Assembly (NCBI GenBank): GCA_964606385.1
Contig: CAZSFZ010000001.1
Location: forward strand, 136,304 to 200,303
Origin: an uncultured bacterium
GTDB taxonomy: Bacteria; Omnitrophota; Omnitrophia; Omnitrophales; Aquincolibacteriaceae
DNA length: 64,000 nt
Direction: 5' to 3'
Below, piece after piece: positions 650-56,416 of this stretch. The notes beneath the pieces are model-generated. The model did no database searches. It was not told the DNA's origin and worked only from the letters and a program-made list of their open reading frames with translations. The translations under genes were made by a program, and so were the position numbers. Position 1 is the stretch's first letter, and every line of letters begins with the position of its first letter.

Positions 650-660
650 TGGGTATGGCG

Positions 661-12600: not shown

Positions 12601-15600
12601 GCCGCCAGCCCGCAATCCACCGCTCACATCCCCCGTTGCATAAGAATTATTAATCGATATACCCTGGTCAACAGCCACCAAACCTCCTCCAATTCTTCCG
12701 GCTGAAACATCACCCGTAGCGTAGCTGTTTTGGAGTACGGTTGTGGAATAAAGATTGCTGATGAGTCCACCGGCATCTCCATTCGAAGTCACGTTCCCAG
12801 TGGCATAAGAGTTTGTAATCGATCCGCCAGAACTTGTTCCTATAAGTCCTCCGACACTATCACCTCCAGAGACGCTAACATTGGCATAAGCACGATCCAC
12901 GAGCCCCGAGCTATTACCTACCAGAGCCCCGGTTGAAGATAAACCTCCACCTCCGGCGCTCACCATACCAGTTACACTACCGCTTGTAAGACCGACATTC
13001 CTGATCTGACCGGATGATGTCCCAAATAATCCAACATCGGTCGCTGATGGTCGATAGATATAAAGGCCCGATATTGTATGGTCGTTTCCCTCAAATGTTC
13101 CGGAGAAACCCGCTATAGGACTAAACCCTCCATAGGTGGTACCGGATACCCAGTTCCAGGTCGCGGTTCCCGAAGCGTCAATGTTGTTGGCAAGCGTGTA
13201 AGAAGCGCCAAGGTCCACGGCTATGAGCTGGAGGTCAACGGCGTTGGTGAGGGTCGTGGTGTGCTCCTGCTGAAGGCGGGGCCTGTCCGCCATGATCCAG
13301 TTCCCGATCGTGCCGTCGCCCACCACACTGAAATCCCATCCGGTAAAGGTCGCGGCCGAAGACATCTCCTGGGTGGTCTTGGGCGTTCCCTTGCCGGTGT
13401 CGCTTTTGCCGCTGGTCTGGGAATTGTAAAAAGAATTCGTGATGGTACCCCCCGTGAGACCGCCCACAAGGCCGCCGACATTCGTGTTCGTATCGTAAAC
13501 ATGTCCTGTTGAATAAGAATTCGTGATGGAACCGGCCGTATTTTCGCCCACAAGACCGCCGATATAATCCCCAGTAACGGGCCATCCCATGTCTCCCATA
13601 ACCTCCCCGGTGTTATAGGAATTCAAAATAGTCCCGGAATTACTCCCCACCAGACCACCAGTGCGGCCCTTGTTGGCATAAGCACCGTAACTGGAAGCAT
13701 TGTAGGAATTCTCTATCGCCCCTGAGTTATCACCGACCAAGCCTCCGGCTCCCACCTGACCGAGCACATTTTCTGCCCAAACCCAGCTTGAACCGGTCAT
13801 GGAGGATTTTTGAATGGTGCCTGAATTCACACCCACAAGGCCGCCCACTTTTTGGGTCCCAAGGATCTCACTATCCGCTGTCCCGGTTGCCAGCTTAACG
13901 CGGTTCATGGTTCCGCCCTCTTGAGTCCCAACGAAAGCGCCCACATTCGAACCGCCGGTCACACCCGCTGAGGAGAGCACAACATCCTGAATCGAGGCGT
14001 TATTGGTGTACCCGAAAAGGCCGACATTGTCCTCTCCGCCGCGGCTGATTTTTAAATTAGAAATAGTTTTTGAATTACCATCGAAATTCCCGGCGAATTT
14101 TGTAGTCGCATCGCCGATCGGATCAAATCCCGCCCCGGCATTCCAACCCGAGGTGCTTGTCGCGGCAATATCATTGGCCAACTCGAAGTAAGTCCCCGCC
14201 GCCAGATATCCCCCCATGGCCTGGAGGCCATAGACATCGGAGATCATGTACGGATCCCCGGAAGCGCCAGTGCCCGTAAAGCGACTCAGCTTAGCGTCGC
14301 TATTGATCCGAAAGTCCGTGATCGAGGACCAGGCGGAAGTCGCGAGAGCGGCCGTGTAGACCGGCGTCACGCTTCTCGTTCCGGCCAGGGTCAGGATTTT
14401 CACCCCGGTCACGTCTCCAATCGTAGAATCTTTGGAGGCTTTGAGCGTCAGATCGTGATTATTGCCGGCCACGGCATAATCCCCGCTCCAGAAAATTCCC
14501 CCGAGATCATTGATGCCGTCGGAATCCGCCCAAATGGTTGTATCGCCGCTCAAGCTAAAATTTCCAAGCACATTAATGTCATCCACATCTTCGTAGCTCC
14601 CGGAAATGATCGCCCCTTCTTCGATGTCCGCGGCGTGGTCAAGGTTCTCCATCACGGCACGTCCAACTTCCATCCGGCCTCCAACTTTGAATGTCGCTCC
14701 CTGTTCAGTAAGCGTTTGAGCTTTTAAAACGCCTTGCGTCTTAATGGCGCCGGCAGCGGTCAGATCCATCTCCCCGCCGGTCGCATCCATCGTTCCTTCG
14801 TTCACAATCTCGACCTTCTTGGAAGTCACTTCAATCTTGCCGTTCAGAGCCTCCAGGAGCATTTTGTTATAGGCGGCCTGCTCGGCGGTCAGTTTGATGT
14901 TGCCGCCTTGCGCCTTCATCGCGCCAAGGTTCGTGACGCGCCCCTCCTGGGAAGTGACACGGATCTCGCCTTTCGGAGCCTCGATAGCTCCCGCGTTCGT
15001 GACATCCTGACGGGCCGTGAGCGCAGCCGCTCCTTCTGTCGCGCGGATCGTGCCCTCATTCACCACTTCGCCTTCCGTCGACTCGACTTCCACTTTCCCG
15101 TGGAGAGCCTCCATCAGCATTTTGTTGTAGGCGGACTGCTTGGAGGTGAGATGAAGCACACCTTCGTCCGCTTTCATCGTCCCCTTGTTCGTGATGGCGC
15201 CTTCCGTCGAAACCACGCGAACCTCACCGCCTAAAGAGCTCATGATGGCTTCATTCACGATATCCCGTTTCGCGGTCACCTCCACCTTGCCCTTGTCCGC
15301 CATCATCGTTCCCTGATTGGTCACGTTGCCCGAGACCGACTCAACCTTGATCGAACCTTCCTGGGCTTTTATCAGAGCCTCATTCATGATGTCGTCCAGG
15401 ACACGCGCTTCGATCTTTCCCTGCTCGGCATCGATCATCCCCGTGTTCGTGAGACCTCCCTGCGCCGCCTCGATCTTGACCTCCCCGCCGCGCGCCTGCA
15501 CCAGGGCCTCGTTATAGATATCATCCAGGGACTGGAACTCGATCACACCGTTATCCGCCATGACAGCGCTGACGGCATTCCCATGCTTCTCAAGGCTGAT

Positions 15601-16452
15601 GGCTTTCTCAAAAAGCCCGTCCATGGCTTGAGCGTTCAAAATCACCTTGCCACCGTCAGCCGAGATCGTCCCCGTGTTCTTGATCTGGGATTCAAGACCC
15701 AGTTTATTGGCCGTCGCTTCATCAACCCCGATCGAAACGAGCCCGTCCCCGGAAATACCCACCGTTACCGTATTGCCCGCAGCGAGAGCGACCGTGCCCA
15801 TTGGCACTTCGATCGTCCCCTTGTTCTCAATGGCATTAGCGATGAGCGCTACCAGGTCCGCATTGTTGCCCACGATCTTGCCGTCATTGGTGAGAAAGCC
15901 GCCTCCCCCTGAAAAGGAATACTGCCGTGCGAAAAAGTCCGTCGCGCTGGTGTTAAGAGCCAGGGTGGAAGCAAGGAGTGAGGCATTGTTCAGGTTGATC
16001 ATGGCGCTTGAGCCGATATTAATCCCGGCGATATTCTGGAGGATAAAGGCAAGGTTTGAGAGGTTCATCGTGCCGAAAATGTTCGAGGCCTGGCCGCCGT
16101 TCACGAGAAGCGCCAAGCTCGCGTTCTGGCTGAGGCCTGAGATGTTATAAATATTATTCTGCGGCACGTTGAACTCGGGGACGTTCCACACGGGGTTCCC
16201 CGTGACGTTCCAGTTCGTGGTGTTCTCCTGCGTGTTGACTTCTACACTGCCGCCTTCCAGGTTGATCGTCTCGGCCATCACCGGACTCACGCACATCGAC
16301 CACGCAAACACAAAAGCTGTAAACGCCGCCGTCGCTTTCCGCCAACCCATCCGACCCCGGAGGTCGGATTGGGGCAACTCTGTGGCTAGGCCGGTGGCAC
16401 CAGATTGACTTGGCACAGCCCTGTTCTGGGTTGTATATATTTTCTTTTTCAT
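661..16452 (-). CDS. giant TpsA/filamentous-haemagglutinin-like exoprotein (about 5263 aa): TPS domain, FHA beta-helix, GLUG-motif modules, PATR-like beta-helix, about 19 MBG-like repeats, Pro-rich stalk, C-terminal FecR-like domain
   Basis: This is one uninterrupted ORF.
- Start: the preferred start is ATG 16450-16452 (MKKKIY...) rather than the ORF-track start 16494.
- N-terminus: there is an ESPR-like N-terminus followed by a hydrophobic signal segment (AAFTAFVFAWSMCVSPVMA).
- TPS domain: residues about 60-330 align to the haemagglutination-activity/TPS domain (WNVPEFNV...SLALLVNGGQASNIFGTMNLSN.AFILQN.AGINIG...LLASTLALN..DFFA versus the FhaB INWQSFNI...ALNRVTGG.PS.ILG.L.ANGQVFLVNPNGILFG...LVASTLDI).
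- Repeat families: there are many GGLVG/GGLIG GLUG motifs, a GGTFNG 10-12-aa periodic beta-helix, and KVYDQTT...TLSGITASNK 83-aa repeats.
- Pro-rich stalk: PPTVVDPPPIVIPPQPPVITPPP.
- C-terminus: the last about 100 aa (ILPGDEVKTADRNSVEVLMDDGKTGRVEIKEGSLFRIQ...SRFEVRTPTALTGVRGTTFEVTV) match the FecR-domain pattern. Confidence 0.85.
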   Translation of the reverse strand: MKKKIYTTQNRAVPSQSGATGLATELPQSDLRGRMGWRKATAAFTAFVFAWSMCVSPVMAETINLEGGSVEVNTQENTTNWNVTGNPVWNVPEFNVPQNNIYNISGLSQNASLALLVNGGQASNIFGTMNLSNLAFILQNIAGINIGSSAMINLNNASLLASTLALNTSATDFFARQYSFSGGGGFLTNDGKIVGNNADLVALIANAIENKGTIEVPMGTVALAAGNTVTVGISGDGLVSIGVDEATANKLGLESQIKNTGTISADGGKVILNAQAMDGLFEKAISLEKHGNAVSAVMADNGVIEFQSLDDIYNEALVQARGGEVKIEAAQGGLTNTGMIDAEQGKIEARVLDDIMNEALIKAQEGSIKVESVSGNVTNQGTMMADKGKVEVTAKRDIVNEAIMSSLGGEVRVVSTEGAITNKGTMKADEGVLHLTSKQSAYNKMLMEALHGKVEVESTEGEVVNEGTIRATEGAAALTARQDVTNAGAIEAPKGEIRVTSQEGRVTNLGAMKAQGGNIKLTAEQAAYNKMLLEALNGKIEVTSKKVEIVNEGTMDATGGEMDLTAAGAIKTQGVLKAQTLTEQGATFKVGGRMEVGRAVMENLDHAADIEEGAIISGSYEDVDDINVLGNFSLSGDTTIWADSDGINDLGGIFWSGDYAVAGNNHDLTLKASKDSTIGDVTGVKILTLAGTRSVTPVYTAALATSAWSSITDFRINSDAKLSRFTGTGASGDPYMISDVYGLQAMGGYLAAGTYFELANDIAATSTSGWNAGAGFDPIGDATTKFAGNFDGNSKTISNLKISRGGEDNVGLFGYTNNASIQDVVLSSAGVTGGSNVGAFVGTQEGGTMNRVKLATGTADSEILGTQKVGGLVGVNSGTIQKSSMTGSSWVWAENVLGQVGAGGLVGDNSGAIENSYNASSYGAYANKGRTGGLVGSNSGTILNSYNTGEVMGDMGWPVTGDYIGGLVGENTAGSITNSYSTGHVYDTNTNVGGLVGGLTGGTITNSFYNSQTSGKSDTGKGTPKTTQEMSSAATFTGWDFSVVGDGTIGNWIMADRPRLQQEHTTTLTNAVDLQLIAVDLGASYTLANNIDASGTATWNWVSGTTYGGFSPIAGFSGTFEGNDHTISGLYIYRPSATDVGLFGTSSGQIRNVGLTSGSVTGMVSAGGGGLSSTGALVGNSSGLVDRAYANVSVSGGDSVGGLIGTSSGGSITNSYATGNVTSNGDAGGLISNLYSTTVLQNSYATGDVSAGRIGGGLVAVDQGISINNSYATGDVSGGLRAGGLVGWLLFDASLTNTYASGSVTGGSDIGGLVGLQQAGTANITHSFSKGLVSGGTGNMGGLIGRVADAVVLTQSFYDSETSGQSDTGKGVPKTTTEMMTQATFTGWDFNIDGTGAGSGAWVMAGYPHLQHEWTPTISNASQLQMMALDLDAAYTLAGDIDASGTSGWNAGAGFSPVGYDTSHPFTGSFEGNNHTINGLFMNRGDYTGLFGVWGTGGFEGQGGTLQNVGLTGANISGTSYVGALVGEVLTGVLTNVYSTGSVFGTGSVGGLIGRFGSGAADSTLSNSHSDANVNSTGGSVGGLIGQSWEDVTTSYATGDVSGTIGVGGLIGGRHMGTLSHSYATGDVTASSIMAGGLVGSNVGGFSNSFATGNITGTDRVGGLVGNQNGGDVSDVYAIGSVTGTDKVGGLIGVLAGGSLSQAYSTGSVTADTNKGGLVGYDEYGPVYTSNFWNTTTSGMADGVGNQDPEPAGVTGKTTAEMMQSATFSGWDFTVDGVAAGSGDWIMAGMPHLQIEWSTDIKTLAQLQMMALNLDASYTLANDIDASETSNWNSSAGFSSVGTFTGVLDGGYHEISNLKATQGLFSVLSGGGTIVRNLGLLNVTGTGGSVALTARDSVSITNVYATGTITGGVAGGLVGWLGSAFIDNSYSAVNVTGSGSTGGIAGSLSGASVGQPLPEIRNSYATGSVTNTGSDNWARAGGAVGYTCVGKLINSYATGQVSGGTHAGGLVGYIDFDQMTITNSFWNVETTGQATSAYNHGTGLTIQQMTQQSNFTGWDFDVDGVSAGHNGTWIMAGNPHLQMEWSENITNAAQLQMMALDLDANYTLANNIDASATTTWNWNGSSYLGFDPVGYSTGNWFDPPTNPFTGSLNGAGYGITGLTINRGSENTVGLFGAISGSNISRVGLLGGSVIGADNVGSLVGHAYNSTLSLNYATGTVSGSDQVGGLVGQAGSSSITLSYATGNVTGTGYNTGGLVGDNYQSSIGNSYATGAVSGNAYVGGLVGYNSDSSLTNTFSTGNVSGNSSVGGLIGSYSGGTLTNNYWDTETSGLATSAGEGAGAVEGKTTAQMMQQATFSNWDFRIFQDDRVGIWTMAGLPHLQNEWTDVITNVVQLQMMALDLDANYTLANDIDASGTAGWNGGAGFNPIGEDYGTDFFSGTLDGNNKTITGLTINRPAENYVGLFGAITNSTIQDLGLVNVAVTGSSAVGALAGHNTSSVVSNTYSTGTVTGSSEGSESAAGGLIGKNYGTLTATYSTATVSGNRMVGGLVGEGGSGAYYGRSIIQDSYATGAVTGANNEVGGLSGTLGTAYDGVAEINNSYATGLVISSGYEGGLVGTRYGGTITNSFWNTETSGAAFGVADGIQDGVTGLTTAQMMDPVIYGNAGWDIFTPVWDTYTDALPTLNWQNAAAGTAAYIWSGNSDTDWSTASNWSTGSAPDSNSTVYVFNRANDPLTASSVELQALNILSSGILTLGDTLTVNGALANDGTITGSTVINNGTWSGAGTTNSAVDNFGTVSGGTFNGVYSTDYSDGTITGGTFNGLVNNYGWGTISGGTFHGDVYNDYLISDGTFNGSVTNYTFNAGGGIYGGTFTGGVNNIFTGEISGGTFNCGVTNGGVGSTTAWIFDGTFNGAVFNYEYGTIYGGTFNSSVSNDAGDLSGGIFNGSVTNSALVFDGTFNSVVENAGTIFGGTFTGDLTDWGIVDGGNFGGLQSMTLETGGTWDYDTEVGGSIINKGIIAAGTFTGAVENRLHIAAGTFNGTVINSGAITGGTFALTGDYTQTAGSFSGVTDSMTMANFDLQGGTFQAPDMTVSGAFKVSDGAFTSGSSVITLQGANATYLSTDVNAANTDWMDGTLNIQSDANQALPGDETYGILQLGRNAGTGTTLYTMGSNTSIGTGFTIDLDDAKLVLTVNAMGVNKIYNGTTTATATFTDDHITGYYEAYTINYTASFADKNVGTGKAINVTGISLSGASASYYQLAFSSDATTADITAKAITLSGITASNKVYDQTTAVTVSTTGADFAGMIDGDELTVSSTGVFSDKNVAAGKTVTLTNTLGGADLANYSITDQGTTTADITAKAVTLSGITASNKIYDATTDATVSTVGATFTGMIGGDELTVSSTGVFSDKNVASGKTVTLTNTLGGADLANYTITDQGTTTANITAKAVTLSGITASNKVYDQTTDATVSTAGAVFTGMVDGDDLTVSSTGTFSDKNVAVGKTVTLTNTFDGADLGNYTITDQGTTTADITKAAVTLSGITASNKVYDQTTDATVSTAGAVFSGMYAGDELTVLSTGAFSDKNAADGKTVTLTNTFGGADLANYEITDQGSILANITKAVATLSGITASNKVYDSTTAATVNDTGAIFGGLYSGDELTVSSTGVFSDKNAGDGKTVNLSNILGGVDLGNYTVIDQTTTTADITKAAVTLSGITASNKVYDQTTAATVSTSGALFAGKYDGDVLTVSSTGTFSDKNVANGKTVTLANTFGGTDLGNYNITDQGTTTADITKATVTLSGITASNKVYDQTIAATVSTAGADFAGKYVGDVLTVSSTGTFSDKNVGTGKTVTLANSFGGADLGNYNITDQGTTTADITKATVTLSGITASNKVYDQTTAATVSTVGAAFAGKYAGDVLTVSSTGTFGDKNVANGKTVTLVNTFGGTDLGNYNIADQGTTTANITQKAVTLGGITASSKVYDTTTDVNVSSAGANFSGLIAGDELTVSSAGVFSDKNAGIAKQVDLTNVLGGADLNNYMVIDQQTTTADITKATVTLSGITASNKIYDSTTAATVSTSGAAFAGKYAGDELTVSSAGTFSDKNVGVGKTVTLANTISGADAGNYTVVDQGTTVADITKASVTLSGITASDKFYDGTTDAAISTAGAIFEGKYAGDTLTVSSTGVFDDKNVGTEKIVTLTNILGGSDLENYQIADQATTTADIQARGVAIDLTGSRVYDGTVNLAAEIFTLSNLVGGETLTLTGVGTMADKHVADGKTVTLGTLALGDGMNGGLASNYTLTGGTHTVDIIAAPIMISAENISKTYDGGLAAPTTARVYSGQLFDTDTILGGTFAFTDKNVGYANKTITVSDVTVSDGNGGGNYAITYVDNTTSTINPYVVDLSGSRVYDGTLEVAAGVFSLSALVGTETLTLTGIGRMDDKNVGIHKAVTTGTLALGDGMNGGLAGNYTLEGGTHTVNIGKATAALSGVAALNKVYDATTAAAVSTAGAAFAGKYGNDVLTVSSTGTFSDKNVAAGKTVTLVNTFGGSDLGNYNITDQATTTADITKATVTLSGITASNKVYDQTTVATTNTAGAAFAGKYAGDVLTVSSTGTFGDKNVGTGKTITLVNTFGGADLGNYNITDQGTTTADITKASVTLSGITASNKVYDQTTAATVSTAGAAFAGKYDGDVLTVSSTGVFSDKNVANGKTVTLTNTFGGTDLGNYQITDQGMTTASITARPLTITATGIHKVYDGTTAAAATLSDNRLTGDVLAPSYTTATYADSLVGTSKPVTVSGISLSGVDSYNYAYNAVATTLADITPVPVVIVTPPTVVDPPPIVIPPQPPVITPPPVVIVEPPAITNPPINITPPTPPTPPVTPPTTPVTPPTQPVTPPAQPSVPAAGSTPSSGTVSSQPATTPAAGNTASSGTTGTSAASQENSSSSSTANSSSSSAGRQGDNDSGQASEGEDSREQGAIAKDEAAAENDGVAPSKEEAANIQWRDVPIDVMMKNQDNRKFLTDVRVLEGAVYVIDAVNTMSLLGMGDSMRVLYKKRVSKAIKAPKKVDIQERQKSREEIAEAKDLVVETIPQEAPKEPATPEMKEALTQILEKVKEEPEVEPAPANRVLKSASPVIMHQTKTGERYGTLKNPGRDVFVRSNGGDWKAAADGMIILPGDEVKTADRNSVEVLMDDGKTGRVEIKEGSLFRIQKAETDSVTGAKTTLLDLAMGKILVKVESLKGNSRFEVRTPTALTGVRGTTFEVTVKEKA
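2040..6870 (-). repeat. intragenic tandem array of about 19 units of about 249 bp (83-aa MBG-like repeats) with high nucleotide identity
   Basis: Near-identical DNA blocks recur every about 249 nt (for example ...gtcgtagtcccctgatcggtaatgttgtaattgccgagatcg...). At protein level the repeating unit is ITKA(A/T)VTLSGITASNKVYDQTT..GDxLTVSSTG.FSDKNV..GKTVTL.NT.GG.DLGNY.ITDQGTTTAD. Confidence 0.8.
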
Positions 16453-16633
16453 TTTTTTGCCTCTAATAGAAGAGTACTCTACAAAACAATACAAAACAAT
16501 AGCACCTTAATACTTTTTTATATTATTTTTCTATTTATAGCTATATATAGCGTTTTTCATAGTATTTTATAGTATGTTTAAACACAAAGATGATCATATT
16601 TTGAGCATCATAAAAAATAAGGATTTTTGACGC
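16453..16633 (-). promoter_or_regulatory. AT-rich island carrying the promoter/regulatory region of the giant gene
   Basis: This is about 180 bp of roughly 25% GC in an otherwise roughly 58% GC window, between the GH57 stop (TAG 16634-16636) and the giant-gene start. It contains a tandem 10-mer acaaaacaat x2 (16481-16500), the palindrome ctatatatag (16541-16550) and the palindrome atgatcat. No confident -35/-10 pair could be assigned. Confidence 0.5.
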
Positions 16634-20899: not shown

Positions 20900-22129
20900 T
20901 CAAACTTCGACCGGTTTATTGGTGGACTCAAAAAGGCACATGCGCTGAACTTTGATCCCCTTCATCAGGACTGCGCCGCCGAAAGCGGAGGAAACCGCGC
21001 CGCCGTTCCAGATCTCGGCGGACTTTTTGTCTAGGCTTTTCTTGTAATCCAGAACCCTTTCGCTCACCTGGTTCCCCAAAGGAGAATTATCCAGGTAATC
21101 ATAGGCCCCGATCAACGCGACCTTGTCATCATTCGACAGGATCAGCCCTTCCGGAGTCAACACGAGCTTCATCCCGCGAGGGACATCGCCTACGGAATCG
21201 GCGGCGACCTGAGCTTCGTGGAGGATCTTGTCCGCCGGGATCTCCGTCACGGCCACAATGCCCGTGTCAAGAAGAACCCCGGAGCCTTCGACATTTTTGA
21301 GTTTCTCGAGATAGAACCGGAAATAAGTGATCTCGCGCGGCGTGTAATAAGGATGGTTCAGGAACTTCAACACTTTTTCCTCGGGAAATCCCAGGTCCAG
21401 AAGCGCTTTTTTGTTCAGGTTGAAAAGGTCCGCCCGGTCCTTGTCGTTCACGAGCTGGTCCGCCGCGGCGTTGACGTTGCTCACGGTCATCACAGCGGAG
21501 ACAATAAAACCCACGGGAACAAAAAAGGTCGCGACCGCCACGATCCCGCGGCCGCCCATCTGGGCCTTGGCCATCGAATCAAGCTTCGCCTGGAGCGCTT
21601 CATTACGCGTATAAACGTCCACCCCGAGCTTCTTCGCGATGTCCCGCTTCGTGGAGCTCAGGAAAGTATCCCCTTTTTCGCCTTCTTCCTTTTTCTTGAA
21701 AGCGCCGCCGATCTTGCCGCCCAATTTGCCGATCCCCTTGCCGATCCCGCTCACGGAATCCACAGGGTGCACCACCATATTCTTGAGCCCTTCTCCCGTG
21801 TCTTTGATCGAATCAACCGCGCCGTCCGCGATGCCGCTCCCCGTATCCTCTGTCGCGTTCAGCTGCGCGAGTACATCCTCCTCATGAAGGAATTTCTTGA
21901 GATTGCTCAGCCCATGGACAGTCGAACTCCCTTGGGGAGAGGTCACCTCAAACGTCAGAAATCCCGGAAACTGAGGATTCTCTTTCACGGAGACGATCTG
22001 GACATTCGGGGACTTCGAGGGATAGAAATCCTTCGGAAGCCGGAGGTCCTGCATGGTCACAGCCCCGAAAGAGAGCGTTTGGGAAGCTACAAAAAAAAGA
22101 ACTGCCAGGATACTGATCTTTTTTTTCAT
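20900..22129 (-). CDS. hypothetical secreted protein (409 aa) with signal peptide and an internal hydrophobic segment
   Basis: The N-terminus MKKKISILAVLFFVASQTLSFGA is a signal peptide. A Gly/Lys-rich region GIGKGIGKLGGKIGGAFKKKEEGEKG and the hydrophobic stretch GIVAVATFFVPVGFIVSAVMTV are present. No known family was recognised. Confidence 0.55.
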   Translation of the reverse strand: MKKKISILAVLFFVASQTLSFGAVTMQDLRLPKDFYPSKSPNVQIVSVKENPQFPGFLTFEVTSPQGSSTVHGLSNLKKFLHEEDVLAQLNATEDTGSGIADGAVDSIKDTGEGLKNMVVHPVDSVSGIGKGIGKLGGKIGGAFKKKEEGEKGDTFLSSTKRDIAKKLGVDVYTRNEALQAKLDSMAKAQMGGRGIVAVATFFVPVGFIVSAVMTVSNVNAAADQLVNDKDRADLFNLNKKALLDLGFPEEKVLKFLNHPYYTPREITYFRFYLEKLKNVEGSGVLLDTGIVAVTEIPADKILHEAQVAADSVGDVPRGMKLVLTPEGLILSNDDKVALIGAYDYLDNSPLGNQVSERVLDYKKSLDKKSAEIWNGGAVSSAFGGAVLMKGIKVQRMCLFESTNKPVEV

Positions 22130-24449: not shown

Positions 24450-25871
24450 TTAGCCATTCTCATAGAAAAGGGTCAGGATCTCCTTAAGGGATTTCTTGTG
24501 ACGCCGGAAAAGCTCGAGGTCTTCCTTCGTGGCCACCCAGGTCAGAGTCGTTTCCCCCTGGGATAGCTGGAACTTCAGGGATTGATAGTCCTTGAAGCTG
24601 TAACTCCGGAGCACTTCCACGAACTCGCGGGCCGTCTGCTCCCAGAAATAAAGCATATCCTCGTGGAGCCCGCGTCCGGGCGTATAGGAGGATTCTTTGG
24701 GGTTCCTTAGCGGGGCGATCGCGTTAAAAAGAAAACTTTTCTCCGGGGCGGGCTCAAAACGCACCACCAGCTTGACGCTCAGGAATGTGTTGGAGATCCG
24801 CTCATCCTCGACGGCGATCATCTGAAAGCGCCGCGTGAGCTGCTTCGCGAGAAAATCCCCCATGGTAATGTCGGGGGTTTTGAATTCCGACTCCCAGTTG
24901 GGGAGGCTTTTCATGACCATGTCCCGCGTGAACGTGAAATCGGGCGTCGCAGCCTTATCATCCAGGTAGGTCATCGGGATGATCCTGCGTATCTTCTCCG
25001 TGTCCCCCAGCGTCGAAACCTGGAACAGGTACTCCATCACCTTCGGTTCGAAGTTCATCATCTTCGGGTCCTTGGGCGCCACTTCCGCTTTGGCATAGAC
25101 CACGATATCGTTGTCCTGGATCGGAATGCTCTTTAATTCCAGGACGGTCCATTTCGCGTGACCGTAAGGCGCCACGAGCCCCCGGGCATCCGTAAAAAAG
25201 AATTCCCCCGTCCATTTCGACTGATCGGTGTTGGGAAAATAACGCTCCTGGACATCATCGACGGTCGCTTCGTTCAGGTCCTTGAAAAAATGTCTCACGG
25301 GACGGTGCCAGACCGCGGCCCGGTTCATATGAAGGTCATGAATGATACGTTTGCGGTATTCGCTCCGCGGGATGTCCCAGAACCGGACCCGCTTGAGATC
25401 GTCGATCTGCCCGACAAAGGTCAGGTCCATGCCGCTTTTTTCAATATCCGTGGCCTGGAGGTAATAAAAATCGATCTTTTTATCGGTGCTGAGCATGATC
25501 CGCGACATGGAAAAAAGGATGTCCTCGACCTTGTCGATGGCCTCCTCGGTCGGCTGGAAAAGACTTTCCATGTCCGTGACTTGGCCGCTCATGAGGGCTT
25601 CTTTGAGATCGGTCGCGAAAAGTTTATCCAGGGGAAGAAAAACGCCGAGGGTCGTCCCTTTGAATTCCACGTCGATATGTGGGATCTGGTATTCCTCGAG
25701 GGCGATCTTTTGAAGGGCTTCCTTGCAGCGGGCCTCGGGATAAGTGACCGGGCTGCAGCCTGAAAAAACCAGCGCTCCCAGAAAAAGCCATGCGAAAAAA
25801 AAGCGGGACCGTGTCTTTAAATACTTCCAAACACGATCCCGCTTTTCAGGAAAAATCGACTTCGCGTCCAA
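24450..25871 (-). CDS. hypothetical lipoprotein (473 aa), tightly coupled downstream of ftsH
   Basis: The signal peptide carries a lipobox (LVFSGCSP). Its start codon is 3 nt after the ftsH stop. No family was recognised. Confidence 0.5.
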   Translation of the reverse strand: MDAKSIFPEKRDRVWKYLKTRSRFFFAWLFLGALVFSGCSPVTYPEARCKEALQKIALEEYQIPHIDVEFKGTTLGVFLPLDKLFATDLKEALMSGQVTDMESLFQPTEEAIDKVEDILFSMSRIMLSTDKKIDFYYLQATDIEKSGMDLTFVGQIDDLKRVRFWDIPRSEYRKRIIHDLHMNRAAVWHRPVRHFFKDLNEATVDDVQERYFPNTDQSKWTGEFFFTDARGLVAPYGHAKWTVLELKSIPIQDNDIVVYAKAEVAPKDPKMMNFEPKVMEYLFQVSTLGDTEKIRRIIPMTYLDDKAATPDFTFTRDMVMKSLPNWESEFKTPDITMGDFLAKQLTRRFQMIAVEDERISNTFLSVKLVVRFEPAPEKSFLFNAIAPLRNPKESSYTPGRGLHEDMLYFWEQTAREFVEVLRSYSFKDYQSLKFQLSQGETTLTWVATKEDLELFRRHKKSLKEILTLFYENG

Positions 25872-31134: not shown

Positions 31135-31557
31135 TTAAGCATTGGATGGAGCATGGGACTTGATCTCGCGTCCCAGAGCTTCGCTCACGGCATCAAGAAG
31201 CTTCTGGCCGCCATAGACCTTTTGGCTGTCCGGATCTATGGAAACCGAGGTGGTTTCCCGGTCCACGCGTTTCACCAAAAAAGTGACCGTGCGAAGGTCT
31301 GAATCATCCAAGCGGCTGTAATTTGTATCCCGGACGGTAATAAGCCCCCGCTCCTTGTCGGTCTCTTCCAACTCCCAGGTCCCCACGGAGTCCAGCGCGT
31401 CCAGCGTCCGGAGGTAGGTGAGATCATACGGAAGTTTATAGACCAAGACCTGATCATTCGGGGGAAGGACCTCGCCGACGGTATTGCACCCGACAAGACC
31501 CAAAGATAAAATGAGAACGGAAAGGACCGCGAGCATATTTTTCATAAAAACCCCCAT
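31135..31557 (-). CDS. small lipoprotein (about 140 aa), translationally coupled to the upstream 1565-aa gene
   Basis: The signal peptide has a lipobox (LSLGLVGCN). Its ATG (31555-31557) overlaps the TAA stop of the upstream gene by 1 nt (TAATG). Confidence 0.55.
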   Translation of the reverse strand: MGVFMKNMLAVLSVLILSLGLVGCNTVGEVLPPNDQVLVYKLPYDLTYLRTLDALDSVGTWELEETDKERGLITVRDTNYSRLDDSDLRTVTFLVKRVDRETTSVSIDPDSQKVYGGQKLLDAVSEALGREIKSHAPSNA

Positions 31558-34500
31558 TAGAATTTTCCGGTCATGCGGACGAACGGGCCGTGAGTCTTGA
31601 AGCTGTTCGTATCGCGCAGGTCATCGCTGAAATCGGAGAAATTATAACCCACTCCGAGCCGCACGTATTCATAAAATTCGCGATCGATCTCGATCAGGGC
31701 CCCCTGCTTGAACGTCTCCAGCGCGTAAGACTGGAAGAGGATCCGGTATTCGAGTGCCAGGTCCCATTTGCGCGTCACATGGAAATTGATGCGGTTGGCG
31801 GTCAGGAACGTATTGACTGCCACGGTCTGCCCATCGGAGGTGAAAACCGTTGAACGTTTGAACGCCAACTTCTCGACCAGGCCAAAATAACGGTTCACGT
31901 CGTAGGCGATATCCCCGGACAGGATGTGGGCCGACTGATCGACCTGGTACCCGTTGCTGTACGTGTACTGCTGATCCGATCCGATATCCTTCAGGTAAGT
32001 GTAGCGTCCGAGGTAATTCCATTTTTCGAGCCTGAGGGGACGGTAAGCGAACCCGGTGCTCAGCTCCATGAAAGTCGCGGGATCGTTGTCTGGATCGTAT
32101 TGGCGCGTGTCGCCCCAATTAAAATAGGTAAGAAAGTTCAGGTCTTCGTTGACCTGATACTGCAAGGAGTTCCGGGTCACGAGCTGGTCCATGTTCGGCG
32201 CATCATCGTCGATCCGCACTTCCCAATAGGTCCGGGCCCTCAATTTCTTGCCGTCCGCGTAAGCCAGACTGGCACCCGCGGTGTTGAAATCGTTGGCGCG
32301 AGCGAGCGAATCCGAGGCCAGCTGATCGATCAAGCGCGTGTTTTTAGCAGCCAGATGCCGGCGTTCGTACTTGGCGCTGTAATCCCAGTGATCGCCCGCC
32401 TTCCCCTCATACCCCAGGATGTCCACATAACCATCACTCCCCTCGTAAGAGGAATATTCGCGTTCGGAGTACATGCGAGATTTCTCGGTGAGGGCGAAAG
32501 AATTCCCGATCGCCGTGGCAAGCGTCTTATCCCCGATCCCGCGGTCCACCGACCGGAGATTCGCGTAGCTTCGCGCCCCGTTCCCGTGCTGACGCTCAAA
32601 ACCAAAATAGGTCGAATCCCCCATCGGCCCCAGCATCTCTTCCAGGTACGCGAAAAGGCTGTTCGTGATCTGGTAACGCACGCCGCCGCCGAACTGATGG
32701 TCGTTCTTCCCGCCGATCGCGGTCTGGACTTTGACGTAAGGCAGAAGCCGGTCATTGATGTGATAGCCCAATTTCCCTGTCACGCCGTTATCAAAAGGAA
32801 TCTGGTTCATGAGATCGGGCAAGAGGTACGACTGGTCCTCCGGCTCGACCGTATCCATATTGCGGTTCTGATATTCGAGTTCCGCGAGGTATTGGCCGTC
32901 ATCGTAAATGATCTGGGCGGTCTGGGTGTCAAGCGTGTCATACGGCGCGTAAGTGTCCGTGACATCAAGCGGCATGAGCTGGCTCAGAACCGCGTTGTGA
33001 TCGAAACGGTACCGGATCGCGAGGCTGTCCGTGAATTTGTAGCGGGCGGCCACGCCGTATTTCTCAAGTCCCTCCTGATCGCGCATATACCCGTTCGAAA
33101 AGGCCGGATTGACGCCCTGGACATAGCCGCTTGTTTCCAGTTTCCGGACGGGCTCAGAGGAGGCCCGGATGAGATAAGCGTCTTCCTGAGGCCCCGTATG
33201 TCTTCCATGCAAGGGGCCGAGGTCCGCGTAGCTGATACCGCCGTCATAAGAGACCGAAGTCCCCATCTGCTGGTTGATCGTCCTCGCGTATTCCGCCGTG
33301 ACCTTCGTATTGCGCCCGAATTTCATCATGGCATCCACGCCGACCATGTCATAATCGCCGCCGGGACGTCTCTCCGTAACGCCGGTCGCGCCGATCCTCA
33401 GGTGGTCTCCCACCCAGGTGTAACCCCGGATCCCTTCGTTCGCGATGGAAGGATCGGAGGAGCTGGGGTCGTACTCATAATCGACGATCAGATAAACCGG
33501 ATTGCCGTCCAGGATATCGGTCGATGTCAAGGTGTCGGTCGCGGCCACCGATGAAAGGGGCCGGGAAAGAAGGATGCGTCCTTCCCCGTAATTGATCTCG
33601 TAATCGGTGCCTTCCTGCAGGTCGTAACTCGTGAGGGTCATGTTCTGGATCTTGTCGCGAATCTCCACGCGGATCTTTTCGCTACCCTCGATGATATTGC
33701 GGTTCCGCGTGTAAAAAAGCGTGCCGCCCGTCGCGTAAAGTTCGTTATGATCCGCTTGGCTCTTGGAATCCGCATAAAAAACCTTAAAGCCGCGTTTCGG
33801 ATCGCCGTACACCGTGCTCGACACCGTGTCGAAATTCACTTTCAGGCCGGAAAGAGTGCGGTTGTAGGTCGCAAGTTCGGTGTCCGTAAATTCGGTCTTG
33901 AAACTTCCCCATTGGGCATACGAGCGGTCCATCTCGACCAGGATAAAAAGTTTTTGCGTTGTTTCCGTCGCCTGATAATCGCGCGTCGAATTGTCCCCAT
34001 AGATCGGATAATAATCGTTGGGATTCAGATTGGTGAAAAGCGCCGAACGGCGGTCGGAAGAATCGTAGCGAGCCTTCACGAGGAACTTGCCCTTGAGCTT
34101 GCCTTTGAGAAAAAAAGCAAGGCGTCCGTCCTCACGGAATCCGTCGCGGTAAACTTCCGAATCCGCGGCTTCCATAGCGCCCGTCGCCTCGTTCAGGCCG
34201 AGCTGTTCCTCCCCTAAGGCCACCATAAAGAAGGTGCTGTCCTTCACCTTGACCTTCTTGGTGAAGCTGGTAGTTTCCCCTTCGGGGGTCGTCGCGGCAA
34301 TATCGATATTGTATTCCCCGGGCTCCACAAAAAACTCTTTCTGGAACATGCCGTTCTCGGCATCCACCTCCACGGGGGTTTCGTTGATCTTGATCTTGTT
34401 CTTGGGCTGGGTTTTCCCCTGAACGCGGACCACGGGCTTGGCGACAAGCGGGATGCTTTGCTTGCCGTCCTTAAAAAGATTGAAATCGCCGATCGGCGGG

Positions 34501-36254
34501 ATCTCGGGATGATAGTTGATCTTTGCTTTCGGATCCGTTTTGGTCATGACCTCGAAGAATTGAAGCGGTGTCCAGTCCTCACGGTTCTTCGGATCGCGCA
34601 CCTTGAGCTGATAAGAGTAAATGCCGGGCTTGATCAAAAGGCCGTTGTCCGTAATGCCCGACCAGGTCACTTCCGGAGGAGGCTGCCCCACACCGTAACC
34701 GGTCCAGACGGGCTGCCCCATTTCGTCCCGGACTTCCAGCGTCCATTTCTTGATGAATTTCCCGTAGTTGTTGTTGAAGGTAAAAACGGGATCTTTTTCC
34801 AAAACGCCCACCCCGAGCTTCACGAGGTTCGGGGACATGTTGACTTCCAGCGTCGGGCGGGTCACGTCCACGCCCTGTGTCACCATCACATCAAGGTCTT
34901 TCTGGAAACTCGCGGGGATCTCGGAAGGCGGCAGAAGGATCGCGAAATTCGCTTTATTCATGATGCCCGGCGTGGTCTTCACCAGATAAGCTTCTTCACT
35001 AATGAATTTCGTCCCGTCCGGCAAACTATGCCCGTCGATCTTCACCACGTGCCGGCCCGGGGACACGCCGGGGATATGATAAAGGCCGTTCTCGTCGGTC
35101 ACGATCCCTATCCCTTCTTCCGTGTAGAGACGGACCCACGGAACACCGGGCTCACCGCAGTCCTGCACCGTGTTCTGGTTAAGGTCATTAAACACCTTCC
35201 CGATGATCGTGCCCTGATCGAAGACGGGATCCCCCTGGGTCATGAATTTCAGCGTGACCTTTTCGGAAAGGTTGCTGCTCCCGACCATCTGCACCTCCAC
35301 GGAGTATTCTTTCCCGAGCGAGACACCGCTTGTTACGAGCATCACAAAACTGGTAGCGTACTGGGCGCCGGCAAGAATGGTGCCGACCGGAATGGTCACA
35401 TACCCTTCCCGGTTGTAGGTTTGTTTCCCGTCCACGTAGATCGACTTGTTGGCATAATCGAAGCCATGCGGCATCTTGACCCGGAGTTCCACGCCCGTTA
35501 GATCGATCCCGGAGGCGTTGTTGTAACGGGCGTTGATCCCCACGGCGTCTCCCGGCGCTACATTCCGCTTGGAAGCCGTGACCGTTAGCTTCGCGGGATT
35601 CACCTCCGCGTTCGCTTGGGCGAAGATCGTGGATCCGATGGCCGGACCGCCGACGGGACCCCACAAGCGGTGAAGCACAAAAGCCACACGCCCCGTGCCC
35701 TCCGGAGCGACCCCCGAAACCTGGAAGGGTTGAAATCCTCCGGCGGGCGGCGCGGAAATATCGTTCACGCAGGTCGCCGGAGTACACGGCACAGTCGGAT
35801 CCGGGATCGTTCGAATTAGAGTATCGGTTCCGTCGGGATTGACTTTTTTAAACTCGATCTTGACTTGGTGGGCTGCCTGCGTGTTGTCCACGCTCGACAG
35901 CGCCATGGCGTTAAAGGAGACGAAATCGCCGGGCTTCACATTGTTGTAGGTCTGGAAAGTGAACGCAGAGCTGTTCCCGTCAAGACGCAGGCCATACTGG
36001 CCGTTCGGCGGCGGCGCGGCAAATCCTGCCGGATAAGCGGCCGTTCCGAAAAGCGCAGTCGCGGCTCCGTTCGTGTTGTCCCAGTTACCGGCGGTGCCGT
36101 TGCCAAGCGGCTGATCAAAATTAGGATTACCGAGCACGTTCGCGAACGCGAGGGGCATGTTAAATGCCATGAGGGAGGCGAGAAAAAAAACGAGCGTGAA
36201 AAGCGCTTTGCTTTTCTTACCGCCCTGTTTTTTTGTGAAACTTCGCAAGCTCAT
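31557..36254 (-). CDS. large surface/outer-membrane protein (1565 aa) with SdrD-B-like domain and putative C-terminal beta-barrel
   Basis: The signal peptide is KALFTLVFFLASLMAFNMPLAFA. An SdrD-B/Cna-B-like segment is present (GKVFNDLNQNTVQDCGEPGVPWVRLYTEEGIGIVTDENGLYHIPGVSPGRHVV). The long C-terminal region is rich in alternating aromatic/polar residues and ends in Phe (...RMTGKF), as in OMP beta-barrels. Confidence 0.5.
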   Translation of the reverse strand: MSLRSFTKKQGGKKSKALFTLVFFLASLMAFNMPLAFANVLGNPNFDQPLGNGTAGNWDNTNGAATALFGTAAYPAGFAAPPPNGQYGLRLDGNSSAFTFQTYNNVKPGDFVSFNAMALSSVDNTQAAHQVKIEFKKVNPDGTDTLIRTIPDPTVPCTPATCVNDISAPPAGGFQPFQVSGVAPEGTGRVAFVLHRLWGPVGGPAIGSTIFAQANAEVNPAKLTVTASKRNVAPGDAVGINARYNNASGIDLTGVELRVKMPHGFDYANKSIYVDGKQTYNREGYVTIPVGTILAGAQYATSFVMLVTSGVSLGKEYSVEVQMVGSSNLSEKVTLKFMTQGDPVFDQGTIIGKVFNDLNQNTVQDCGEPGVPWVRLYTEEGIGIVTDENGLYHIPGVSPGRHVVKIDGHSLPDGTKFISEEAYLVKTTPGIMNKANFAILLPPSEIPASFQKDLDVMVTQGVDVTRPTLEVNMSPNLVKLGVGVLEKDPVFTFNNNYGKFIKKWTLEVRDEMGQPVWTGYGVGQPPPEVTWSGITDNGLLIKPGIYSYQLKVRDPKNREDWTPLQFFEVMTKTDPKAKINYHPEIPPIGDFNLFKDGKQSIPLVAKPVVRVQGKTQPKNKIKINETPVEVDAENGMFQKEFFVEPGEYNIDIAATTPEGETTSFTKKVKVKDSTFFMVALGEEQLGLNEATGAMEAADSEVYRDGFREDGRLAFFLKGKLKGKFLVKARYDSSDRRSALFTNLNPNDYYPIYGDNSTRDYQATETTQKLFILVEMDRSYAQWGSFKTEFTDTELATYNRTLSGLKVNFDTVSSTVYGDPKRGFKVFYADSKSQADHNELYATGGTLFYTRNRNIIEGSEKIRVEIRDKIQNMTLTSYDLQEGTDYEINYGEGRILLSRPLSSVAATDTLTSTDILDGNPVYLIVDYEYDPSSSDPSIANEGIRGYTWVGDHLRIGATGVTERRPGGDYDMVGVDAMMKFGRNTKVTAEYARTINQQMGTSVSYDGGISYADLGPLHGRHTGPQEDAYLIRASSEPVRKLETSGYVQGVNPAFSNGYMRDQEGLEKYGVAARYKFTDSLAIRYRFDHNAVLSQLMPLDVTDTYAPYDTLDTQTAQIIYDDGQYLAELEYQNRNMDTVEPEDQSYLLPDLMNQIPFDNGVTGKLGYHINDRLLPYVKVQTAIGGKNDHQFGGGVRYQITNSLFAYLEEMLGPMGDSTYFGFERQHGNGARSYANLRSVDRGIGDKTLATAIGNSFALTEKSRMYSEREYSSYEGSDGYVDILGYEGKAGDHWDYSAKYERRHLAAKNTRLIDQLASDSLARANDFNTAGASLAYADGKKLRARTYWEVRIDDDAPNMDQLVTRNSLQYQVNEDLNFLTYFNWGDTRQYDPDNDPATFMELSTGFAYRPLRLEKWNYLGRYTYLKDIGSDQQYTYSNGYQVDQSAHILSGDIAYDVNRYFGLVEKLAFKRSTVFTSDGQTVAVNTFLTANRINFHVTRKWDLALEYRILFQSYALETFKQGALIEIDREFYEYVRLGVGYNFSDFSDDLRDTNSFKTHGPFVRMTGKF

Positions 36255-36272
36255 AAGGTCCCTGGTCCCGGG

Positions 36273-37910
36273 TTAAAAACGGCGGCTCGAGAACTTAACG
36301 CCGAAGCGAAGGTCGTAATTAGGAATAAGCGGTACTTCCCCATCCTGCTTGACGCGCTGGGCCCCGCCGATCCCGCACCATTCGGCGAAGATCGCCGTCT
36401 TGGAAAGCCACTCGTTCTCTTTCCAACGGTAAGTCCTGAACGGCATGACCCGGAGCCCGGCGGACAAGTAGTACTGGTTCTGATACCAGAACGAATATTC
36501 CGCGTTATTCGTGTGTTCGAAACGCATGTAGGGCATGAACACCAGCTCGTCATTGATGTAATTGTGCGGGAGCGGGATCCCGGGAAGCTTGATGCCCATG
36601 GTGACCGTGGAGTTCGCGATGAACGCGTTAAAACTTTTCTCGGAGCTGAACCCGGTCTTCGAAACGAAATAGTTACCGAAATATTCGCCCCAAACGTACT
36701 GACGGATATAATCCGAGAATATTTCGGGTTTACTCTCATCAAGCGGCGGCAGTTCAGTGCCCCACTCGTAGTAACATTGGAGTCCCCAAATAAGATCGGT
36801 GTCCCTGCTGTTCGTGATGTCCTCTTTGATGTTGTACTGACCACCGTACTTGATGTAAAAGCGGTAATTGCGCATCCACTCCAGGATCGGGATCCCGCCG
36901 AACGGCTGAAAATTCAGAAGCCAGGGATTCCGGGCCAGCGGACGCCATTCCAACCCGGCGAAAAGCTGGAGGTTGTTGGTAAAGGGCGTGCCTGAGGAAT
37001 CCATGCTGATCGTGCTTTCAATGAACGGATCGATATTGTGCAAAGGAAAACGGATGCCGCTAAAGACCAAACGGTTCGTCCAGTAGCCCACCTGCGTGTC
37101 GAAATGGTTCGCGGCAAGATTGGTCATGCGCCAGCTGGTCTCGCCGAAGGACTGCCAGGTAATGGCCGTGCCGCAGGGGGTCCCCTGAAGAACGCCGTAC
37201 ATTTTTTCGCCGATCCCGAGCTGATCGGTGAATTTGAGGATCAGTTCTTCTTCTTTCTGGAACTGCGCGGGGGTTTTGACTTCGACCGGTTTTTCGACTT
37301 CGGGAATATAGATGGGCGCGGACCGCACGCTTTCCGCGAAATTACCGCCACGGGATTCCACGGCCGATTTATTCGCCGCGATCGCGGACATGGCTTCCTG
37401 GGAGGAGGCGAACGCCCGGTTCCCGACCCAGTAAAGTTCCGATGATTGGCCCGAAACGCCGGGGACCGCCAACTGACGGATCTCCACGCCTTCAAAGTTC
37501 GCTGTTTTAAGATTCTGCTTGATGTAATCGTCGATCGCCTTGACATCTTTCAGGCCGGAAAGCGCGCGGGATTTCACGGCGCCTCCCCCGAAATCCGTCA
37601 CGATGGAATATTCCGAGTTCTGATCGCGGGAATGACTTTTAAAGACCGGGAATCCGCGGACTTCGCTTATTTTGTAATCGAGCTTTTGGGAGGCAGGCGC
37701 AAAGAATTCCTCGGCGAAAAGATTGGCCGCGGGCTTGACGGCCGTTGTGATCTGAGGCGCGGACGCGATCTCGATGGCAGGCTGGGATGCAGGAACGGAA
37801 GTCCCCGGCGGAGTGATCTCAACGATCGCGGGCGTTTCTTCGGAAAACGAGTAGGGAGCAACGGACAGAAAAAGGGCAATGAAGAATATTAAAAAGTTTT
37901 TAATTCTCAT
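36273..37910 (-). CDS. outer-membrane beta-barrel protein (about 545 aa), function unknown
   Basis: The start is taken at ATG 37908-37910 (MRIKNFLIFFIALFLSVAPYSFS signal peptide). The ORF-track start 38213 overlaps dapB. A Pro/Ala-rich linker precedes an aromatic-rich C-terminal region ending ...GVKFSSRRF (terminal Phe). Confidence 0.5.
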   Translation of the reverse strand: MRIKNFLIFFIALFLSVAPYSFSEETPAIVEITPPGTSVPASQPAIEIASAPQITTAVKPAANLFAEEFFAPASQKLDYKISEVRGFPVFKSHSRDQNSEYSIVTDFGGGAVKSRALSGLKDVKAIDDYIKQNLKTANFEGVEIRQLAVPGVSGQSSELYWVGNRAFASSQEAMSAIAANKSAVESRGGNFAESVRSAPIYIPEVEKPVEVKTPAQFQKEEELILKFTDQLGIGEKMYGVLQGTPCGTAITWQSFGETSWRMTNLAANHFDTQVGYWTNRLVFSGIRFPLHNIDPFIESTISMDSSGTPFTNNLQLFAGLEWRPLARNPWLLNFQPFGGIPILEWMRNYRFYIKYGGQYNIKEDITNSRDTDLIWGLQCYYEWGTELPPLDESKPEIFSDYIRQYVWGEYFGNYFVSKTGFSSEKSFNAFIANSTVTMGIKLPGIPLPHNYINDELVFMPYMRFEHTNNAEYSFWYQNQYYLSAGLRVMPFRTYRWKENEWLSKTAIFAEWCGIGGAQRVKQDGEVPLIPNYDLRFGVKFSSRRF

Positions 37911-56395: not shown

Positions 56396-56416
56396 GGTTC
56401 CCCGTCTCTTGCTGGT

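Follow-up and report, generated by a model that had tools for sequence, protein, structure and literature searches.

A predicted giant outer-membrane barrel module, fused to or encoded beside SdrD_B-ending proteins, in a conserved three-gene locus of Omnitrophota

Introduction

Type V secretion systems (Va, Vb, and the Vd type represented by PlpD) join a Sec-exported, N-terminal cargo to a C-terminal outer-membrane barrel of 12 or 16 strands, and are known from both fused and split homologues. Other very large barrels work with small partners: LptD, which has an N-terminal periplasmic beta domain, is plugged in its lumen by the small lipoprotein LptE, and SprA is a giant single-chain barrel accompanied by a small partner barrel (PorV) and a plug protein (Plug). 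SprA, with 36 strands, has been called the largest known barrel (bioRxiv 10.64898/2026.03.07.710327). SlpA of Deinococcus and OmpM of the Negativicutes are core envelope proteins that combine an N-terminal periplasmic wall-binding part with a large C-terminal barrel. Here we describe three adjacent genes (geneA, geneB, and geneC) within a 64,000-nucleotide stretch of contig CAZSFZ010000001.1 (the window) from a member of Candidatus Omnitrophota. The central gene, geneB, encodes a protein whose C-terminal module is predicted to form an outer-membrane barrel larger than any of these.

Judged by sequence and predicted structure, the giant-barrel system appears to work most like type V secretion or anchoring, yet it fails every defining feature of types Va, Vb, and Vd. 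The shared features are Sec export, the order of N-terminal cargo and C-terminal outer-membrane barrel, and the coexistence of fused and split homologues; type Vd additionally resembles it in placing a periplasmic domain between cargo and barrel (POTRA in Vd, OmpA in relatives of the giant barrel). However, the barrel described here, at a predicted ~40 strands and ~900 amino acids (aa), is about three times larger; the proteins lack matches to the Autotransporter, ShlB/Omp85, and POTRA hidden Markov models (HMMs); the cargo consists of immunoglobulin (Ig)-like DUF11/SdrD_B/DUF7507 repeats, not beta-helix; an extra pair of Ig domains stands before the barrel; and in Omnitrophota there are two accessory genes besides.

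The defining features of TonB-dependent receptors, ushers, LptD, and SprA are likewise absent from geneB. The ushers FimD and PapC have 24 strands as opposed to ~40, no Usher HMM match was found, and there are no chaperone or pilin genes near the trio. Like LptD-LptE, the trio combines a very large barrel and an N-terminal beta domain, putatively periplasmic, with a small lipoprotein, the gene for which (geneC) is tightly coupled; like SprA-PorV-Plug, it pairs a giant single-chain barrel with a small barrel and a candidate plug. Unlike SprA, to which it has no sequence relationship (Foldseek template-modelling score, TM, ~0.18), the geneB barrel is C-terminal to its own cargo, and neither type IX secretion system genes nor the corresponding C-terminal domain signals are found here. 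The likeness to SlpA and OmpM lies in the arrangement of a putatively periplasmic N-terminal part and a large C-terminal barrel in a core envelope protein; however, geneB lacks an SLH domain or coiled coil, an OmpA domain occurs in its relatives only, and SlpA is trimeric, with 30 strands.

Results

The giant barrel of geneB

The three genes are encoded as follows:

36273..37910, minus strand: geneA, 545 aa, with its ATG at 37910; a predicted outer-membrane protein (open reading frame (ORF) list, AlphaFold2)
31557..36254, minus strand: geneB, 1565 aa; signal peptide, beta domains, SdrD_B domain, two Ig-like domains, giant barrel, and a terminal Phe
31135..31557, minus strand: geneC, a 140-aa ORF whose probable start is the ATG at 31545 (136 aa); a lipoprotein

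Within geneB, the following regions can be distinguished:

Residues 1-39 (..AFA, then N), minus strand: signal peptide, recognized in the sequence
Residues 40-215, 35610..36137, minus strand: N-terminal beta-rich domain without a family match
Residues ~220-335, 35250..35597, minus strand: DUF11-like domain (below the Pfam cut-off; alignment to relatives)
Residues ~345-440, 34935..35222, minus strand: SdrD_B/CarboxypepD_reg-like Ig domain (Pfam, profile search)
Residues ~450-565 and ~590-670, 34245..34907, minus strand: two Ig-like domains (weak Pfam scores, FlgD match in the PDB)
Residues ~672-1565, 31560..34241, minus strand: C-terminal barrel module (AlphaFold2), with the C-terminal signal ...FVRMTGKF
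Residues ~845-915, 33510..33722, minus strand: small beta domain inserted in the barrel (AlphaFold2, family consensus)

AlphaFold2 models residues 672-1565 as an almost all-beta sheet of outer-membrane type with ~40 strands (predicted TM score, pTM, 0.75); the DSSP string of the model gives ~42, of which ~8 lie before and ~34 after the inserted domain. The latter consists of short strands at model-local positions 187-237, with a high predicted local distance difference test (pLDDT) score, and carries a consensus motif (ATGGSLYYL...EGSEK...DYEIDY..GRI.L.RPL) that is strongly conserved in the family; it is possibly a plug. Foldseek comparison of the barrel with the PDB returned outer-membrane barrels only, and the likeness is generic; SlpA (30 strands, 392 residues), MtrB, FimD/PapC, LptD, and SprA align over the greatest length. 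The geneB barrel is without a sequence model in Pfam, NCBIfam, or the PDB; across scans of the three proteins, their sub-regions, and relatives, weak DUF2490 and OMP_b-brl scores were the only barrel matches. An earlier note on this stretch had proposed a very large C-terminal barrel at residues ~700-1565, joined to an SdrD-B domain in a combination outside described families; the predicted strands, the fold matches, and the lack of any matching HMM agree with that description.

The same note had set geneB apart from TonB-dependent receptors, autotransporters, and TpsB proteins, and the respective HMMs indeed find no match. A classical autotransporter (type Va) is rejected by the absence of PF03797 at E ≤ 1, as well as by the ~40 strands and the lack of a linker helix in the model. 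The TpsB/Omp85 models PF01103, PF03865, PF07244, and PF08479 have no match in geneA or geneB at E ≤ 1, geneB contains neither the Plug (PF07715) nor the TonB_dep_Rec (PF00593) domain of TonB-dependent receptors, and membership of the LptD/LptE families (PF04453, OstA_N, PF04390) is not supported.

Distribution of the barrel module

In a phmmer search of 1.84 billion cluster representatives with geneB residues 660-1565, 2,758 matched at E ≤ 1e-3, and 950 also satisfied E ≤ 1e-30. Family proteins are 900-7,612 aa long and carry the module at the C-terminus or within ~220 residues of it. BLASTP alignments of geneB with two of these (P0111 and P0113) show 26-29% identity over >1000 residues (E values of 7e-106 and 9e-94), and the similarity extends from end to end of the ~900-aa C-terminal module, including the terminal aromatic residue. 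No Pfam or NCBIfam model matches the barrel module in any family member tested. Neither the family nor the trio is described in open-access papers or bioRxiv preprints; a description elsewhere is possible.

A scan of GTDB species genomes recovered at least 576 relatives of the barrel module. Besides Omnitrophota, the matches listed include Planctomycetota (Brocadiia, Scalindua), Acidobacteriota, Nitrospirota, and Nitrospinota; Myxococcales, Bdellovibrionales, and Epsilonproteobacteria; and many Alpha-, Beta-, and Gammaproteobacteria, among them Lysobacter enzymogenes, Stenotrophomonas, Halopseudomonas pelagia, and Methylobacillus. Replicons in PLSDB that encode the barrel come from Sinorhizobium meliloti, Sulfitobacter, Ralstonia, Vibrio campbellii, and others, where it is inconsistently annotated as "hypothetical protein," "OmpA family protein," "outer membrane protein transport protein," or "TonB-dependent receptor." Neither a Plug nor a TonB_dep_Rec domain is detectable in the RefSeq relatives bearing the last of these names; this name and "outer membrane protein transport protein" are probably misannotations.

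In one locus (L003), the barrel gene (13916-17056) is followed by genes for a FecR-domain/Glucodextran_B protein and a HAMP histidine kinase, and then by two GGDEF response regulators. The cassette of FecR-Glucodextran_B protein and HAMP histidine kinase recurs in L031, L032, L033, L034, L043, L053, and L056, and its subfamily comprises OmpA-containing barrels of Deltaproteobacteria, Nitrospirota, Acidobacteriota, and Ca. Tenderia. This gene order suggests a link between the giant barrel and trans-envelope signalling.

Fused and split forms

Among 59 loci that are not orthologous to geneB, 53 encode an SdrD_B domain, usually after DUF11, upstream of the barrel; the distance between the two is 25-950 aa, with one outlier at ~1,570 aa. 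SdrD_B shares the reading frame of the barrel in 26 of these loci (fused form) and belongs to the adjacent upstream gene in the remaining 27 (split form). GeneB shows the same order, with SdrD_B at residues 345-440 and the DUF11-like domain at 220-335, and is a fused form of the family with a short head. The pattern of fusion and fission suggests that the barrel functions together with a protein ending in SdrD_B.

RefSeq annotation confirms that split pairs are two genes, as seen in two plasmid loci. In S. meliloti T073 accessoryA (CDO28_RS34120, RS34125), the gene for a 3362-aa "DUF11 domain-containing protein" overlaps by 4 base pairs (bp) with that for a 1261-aa "hypothetical protein," which is the barrel; in Sulfitobacter guttiformis pSG53 (HS954_RS00115, RS00110), a 6195-aa DUF11 protein is followed by a 1148-aa "TonB-dependent receptor," whose gene has these coordinates:

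L088, 8791-12237: S. guttiformis barrel gene HS954_RS00110 (RefSeq, PLSDB)

Both proteins of the Sulfitobacter pair have Sec-type signal peptides at their N-termini. In the S. meliloti pair, the barrel protein has a signal peptide, and the annotated start of the cargo is closely preceded, in the same frame, by a signal-peptide-like stretch. Split cargoes are built from DUF7507, DUF11, Big_9, Cadherin_5, or He_PIG repeats, with DUF11-SdrD_B and a short OmpA-like tail at the end; such repeats are typical of surface adhesin stalks. At the start of the split barrel proteins are two Ig domains equivalent to geneB residues 450-670.

In many relatives, an OmpA domain (PF00691) lies between SdrD_B and the Ig-Ig-barrel module; examples are P0111 (residues 736-831), P0112, P0113, P0115, and the upstream ORF of L078. 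Pfam and NCBIfam scans did not detect this domain in geneA, geneB, or geneC.

Two further arrangements were observed. In L024 and L028 (uncultured bacterium SRP077602_co2_311), SdrD_B lies ~25 residues before the barrel and the two Ig domains are absent; the minimal architecture therefore appears to be SdrD_B plus barrel. In H. pelagia, the ORF pairs (26-4942 and 4942-8649 in L078; 27-4991 and 4996-8661 in L082) divide at an OmpA-like domain: in the upstream ORF, the OmpA match breaks off at profile position 67 of 98, close to the end of the ORF. Here the split may truncate or erode this domain, or may reflect a frameshift in some assemblies.

The N-terminal region of geneB

The SdrD-B domain named in the earlier note is marginal in geneB by HMM score: PF17210 gives 27.2 bits for the whole protein, below the gathering threshold of 29.7, and 30.9 bits for the N-terminal part alone. 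Precomputed SdrD_B matches exist in nearly all orthologues, and the geneB family profile matches Staphylococcus aureus SdrD in the PDB (E = 1e-7). DUF11 scores 18.7-20.5 bits against a Pfam cut-off of 24.6 and aligns to the DUF11 region of relatives. The Ig-like pair, FlgD_ig-like at ~450-565 and Glucodextran_B-like at ~590-670, has weak Pfam scores. The Ig domains of SdrD and FlgD were the sole matches in sequence and profile searches of the PDB with geneB.

Conservation differs markedly along the protein. Across 95 Omnitrophota orthologues, mean identity to geneB is 36% in the N-terminal domain and 42% in DUF11, as compared with 79% in SdrD_B, 75% in the inserted domain, and 59-70% in the barrel (70% in its first strands). 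The fastest-evolving parts are thus the N-terminal domain, which is the most variable, and DUF11, and the most conserved is SdrD_B; such a gradient is the pattern expected of an exposed head on a constrained anchor.

The conserved trio

The trio sits between dapB and uvrA, flanked by housekeeping genes: arginine and lysine biosynthesis genes, dapF, dapA, and dapB upstream, and uvrA and ftsH downstream. The order dapA-dapB-geneA-geneB-geneC-uvrA-ftsH is kept in ~20 species-level Omnitrophota loci, where the trio proteins share 33-89% identity with those of the window; all orthologous Omnitrophota loci that were inspected have the trio, geneC being undetectable in one of them (L008, below). Conservation of the neighbourhood, which the earlier note had left to be checked, is therefore clear, and its persistence at the lowest identities (33-39%) indicates that the trio is a vertically inherited part of the genome and not an accessory island.

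Full-length orthologues of geneB number ~110 (37-100% identity), and ~170 and 150 homologues were found for geneA and geneC, respectively; these numbers indicate genuine genes as opposed to chance ORFs. All named homologues of geneB and geneC come from Candidatus Omnitrophica/Omnitrophota metagenome-assembled genomes (MAGs), as do those of geneA apart from two records labelled "Verrucomicrobiae bacterium" and "bacterium." None of the homologues of the three genes carries a functional name, and those of geneA and geneC lack Pfam domains. No geneA or geneC homologue was found beside the non-orthologous family members, including the Omnitrophota paralogues L029, L035, and L075; both therefore appear to be lineage-specific additions in Omnitrophota.

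The three ORFs of 545, 1565, and 140 aa, the 18-bp spacing between geneA and geneB, and the terminal Phe of both proteins are as the earlier note reported. A longer version of geneA (646 aa) would overlap dapB, which stops at 37969, making the start at 37910 sensible. The TAATG overlap reported between geneB and geneC is present in the sequence; however, 19 geneC homologues start at the second Met (MKN...), and the corresponding ATG at 31545 has a GGGGG-N5 motif just upstream, so that geneC more probably begins there. A gap of a few bases between geneB and geneC is accordingly more likely than an overlap. A terminator scan found no terminator-like site between the trio genes, which makes co-transcription probable, on weak evidence, and a promoter scan found a single weak promoter-like site upstream of geneA, within the 3' end of dapB.

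GeneA was modelled by AlphaFold2 with 33 homologues (pLDDT 77.8, pTM 0.53), giving the following regions:

Residues ~1-23, minus strand: signal peptide (AlphaFold2 model)
Residues 19-59, minus strand: disordered linker (AlphaFold2 model)
Residues ~60-200, 37311..37733, minus strand: alpha/beta domain, non-POTRA (AlphaFold2)
Residues 214-238, minus strand: two helices (AlphaFold2 model)
Residues 250-545, 36276..37163, minus strand: 12-strand beta-barrel (AlphaFold2, Foldseek)

The 12 long strands of the barrel span residues 250-542. In the N-terminal domain, four strands, a helix, and four more strands precede the helices; the order in POTRA domains is a strand, two helices, and two strands. 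POTRA domains, a possibility raised for this protein by the earlier note, were thus found neither by HMM (E ≤ 1) nor by the order of secondary structure. Foldseek matches in the PDB are generic outer-membrane barrels of 12-16 strands, every one with TM <0.4, and include the beta domains of BrkA, Hbp, and EspP, as well as Tsx, FapF, and porins; TamA and BamA match through the barrel alone, with low TM. GeneA has no Pfam, NCBIfam, or PDB sequence match.

The geneC product has the lipobox LVGC (...SLGLVGC, then NTV), the Cys of which is invariant in 20 homologues, followed by an alpha/beta domain of ~110 aa. Together with the predicted folds of geneA and geneB, this upholds the earlier description of the trio as two outer-membrane barrel proteins and a lipoprotein. 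No Pfam, NCBIfam, or PDB match was found for geneC, and the orthologue in L001 shares 36% identity with it. Many geneC homologues are labelled "MFS superfamily sulfate permease-like transporter" in JGI/IMG; this label is probably an annotation artefact, because the homologues are 130-aa lipoproteins without a transmembrane transporter domain. In one Omnitrophota MAG (L008, JBAZJC010000035.1), geneC is undetectable, geneA and geneB are intact, and uvrA begins ~50 bp past the barrel gene (8718-8767); this could be a loss of the lipoprotein or an assembly problem.

Discussion

Proposed mechanism and alternatives

Taken as a whole, the locus is best explained, if tentatively, as an envelope operon in which a giant barrel anchors or exports an SdrD_B-ending protein. 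Under the logic suggested by the family, an Ig-Ig-barrel protein (module 2) would work with a Sec-exported protein ending in DUF11-SdrD_B (module 1). GeneB would be exported by Sec, and its C-terminal module would insert in the outer membrane as a very wide barrel, with SdrD_B and the inserted domain acting as its junction and plug, inside it or next to it. A periplasmic segment would precede the first barrel strand, and the variable head (residues 40-335), linked through or at the barrel, would be held at the cell surface, probably having been passed through the barrel. GeneA, with a putatively periplasmic alpha/beta domain, and geneC would be accessory subunits specific to Omnitrophota, most likely assembling, plugging, or bracing the giant barrel, roles that they may have by analogy with LptE-LptD and Plug/PorV-SprA; they may also stand in for the OmpA-type peptidoglycan-binding domain of relatives.

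Several points weigh against this explanation. The OmpA domain next to the barrel in relatives puts that part, and by default everything N-terminal to it, in the periplasm; at least the barrel-proximal part is therefore probably periplasmic. Surface display of a Gram-positive style is consequently doubtful as a description. The association of the barrel with a giant Sec-exported DUF11/SdrD_B repeat protein, either fused to it or encoded directly upstream (53 loci), lends independent support to the broader idea of a surface-display or secretion module suggested earlier. We infer the side of the membrane on which the geneB head would lie; the path assumed here, in which the chain passes from the outside through the lumen to the periplasm before it forms the barrel, has a known precedent only in type Vd (PlpD). 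The head of geneB is only ~300 aa long and has no recognizable adhesive or enzymatic domain. An amphipathicity test of the barrel was partly supportive, flagging 15 of ~50 strands as clearly lipid-facing, and we infer barrel closure and the exact strand count from the model. Additionally, the housekeeping genomic position fits a structural role as well as display.

Such a structural role is the core of one alternative, in which geneB is an outer-membrane scaffold or wall tether: its five N-terminal beta-sandwich domains would hang in the periplasm, nothing would be displayed or exported, and the protein would act as a brace between the outer membrane and either the wall or the geneA and geneC proteins, as SlpA/OmpM do through SLH and OmpA through its C-terminal domain. 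The placement of OmpA PF00691 directly N-terminal of the barrel module in relatives is consistent with this, as are the default periplasmic position of the N-terminus of a C-terminal barrel, the status of the tether-porin SlpA as the best structural match by aligned length, and the single-copy, core-genome synteny between dapB and uvrA, which points to a housekeeping function in the envelope. In SusC/Oar-type transporters, moreover, the N-terminal domains resembling CarboxypepD_reg/SdrD_B are periplasmic. However, no peptidoglycan-binding domain is detectable in the Omnitrophota protein, the thousands of adhesin-type repeat residues of relatives (in proteins of up to 7,612 aa) are hard to fit in the periplasm, and the two most N-terminal domains evolve fastest, which is unusual for a wall-binding end. 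We consider a tether rather unlikely, though a serious competitor to the preferred explanation.

Both remaining alternatives touch on another ORF of the window:

661..16494, minus strand: 5277-aa ORF with a GLUG motif, a Peptidase_M26_N-like region, and 19 YDG domains

The barrel could be a plugged general translocon, serving as a conduit for other cargo (for example, very long Omnitrophota surface proteins, lipids, or polymers), with geneC as lumen plug or assembly lipoprotein and geneA as a small partner barrel, as PorV is to SprA. A lumen of ~40 strands would be wide enough for folded domains and would need a plug, and in its make-up (giant barrel, small barrel, lipoprotein) the trio recalls SprA-PorV-Plug and LptD-LptE, with LptD and SprA among the fold matches. 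The window itself encodes the 5277-aa repeat protein, and according to a preprint, very long proteins are common in Omnitrophota. We nonetheless regard this alternative as improbable. The earlier note had also considered the giant barrel as a partner for the 5277-aa protein, which it took for an orphan TpsA; geneA or geneB would then be a TpsB-type transporter acting on a gene 15-20 kb away. All that favors this is that the genes share a window and a strand, and we give it hardly any credence: geneA and geneB lack POTRA and ShlB/Omp85 at E ≤ 1, geneA has 12 strands and not 16, and the synteny of the trio in other genomes is independent of the 5277-aa ORF. In the ORF itself, neither the first 500 nor the first 2000 residues contain a TPS (Haemagg_act) domain, so that the TpsA label looks wrong.

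Implications

Anchoring or export by the giant barrel, the explanation preferred here, invites a broader proposal that we regard as doubtful: that the ~900-aa module represents an undescribed class of outer-membrane export or anchoring, occurring fused and split in many diderm phyla, with a barrel of ~40-42 strands that exceeds SprA, and forming in Omnitrophota a core-genome machine with two accessory proteins. If so, thousands of proteins named "DUF11 domain-containing" or "OmpA family," or misnamed "TonB-dependent receptor," would share one unrecognized route by which Ig-repeat cargo is held or exported, spanning Planctomycetota, Acidobacteriota, Nitrospirota, Proteobacteria (including Sinorhizobium and Sulfitobacter plasmids), and Omnitrophota. 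The barrel would exceed all solved ones, raising questions for assembly dependent on BAM (the machinery that assembles beta-barrels). For Omnitrophota, an uncultured phylum of ultra-small, possibly predatory cells, the trio would be a conserved envelope operon and maybe a major surface component. Cultured relatives with the split, two-gene form make the hypothesis testable.

Other genes in the window

Three additional ORFs of the window were noted:

53912..56437, minus strand: 841-aa protein with an AsmA-family region
24450..25871, minus strand: 473-aa ORF without a Pfam match
20900..22129, minus strand: 409-aa ORF without a Pfam match

The 841-aa AsmA-family protein could be a factor for lipid transport or assembly at the outer membrane. 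In L001, a 476-aa gene without a Pfam match lies beside ftsH, in the same position as the 473-aa ORF, which it resembles in size and place.

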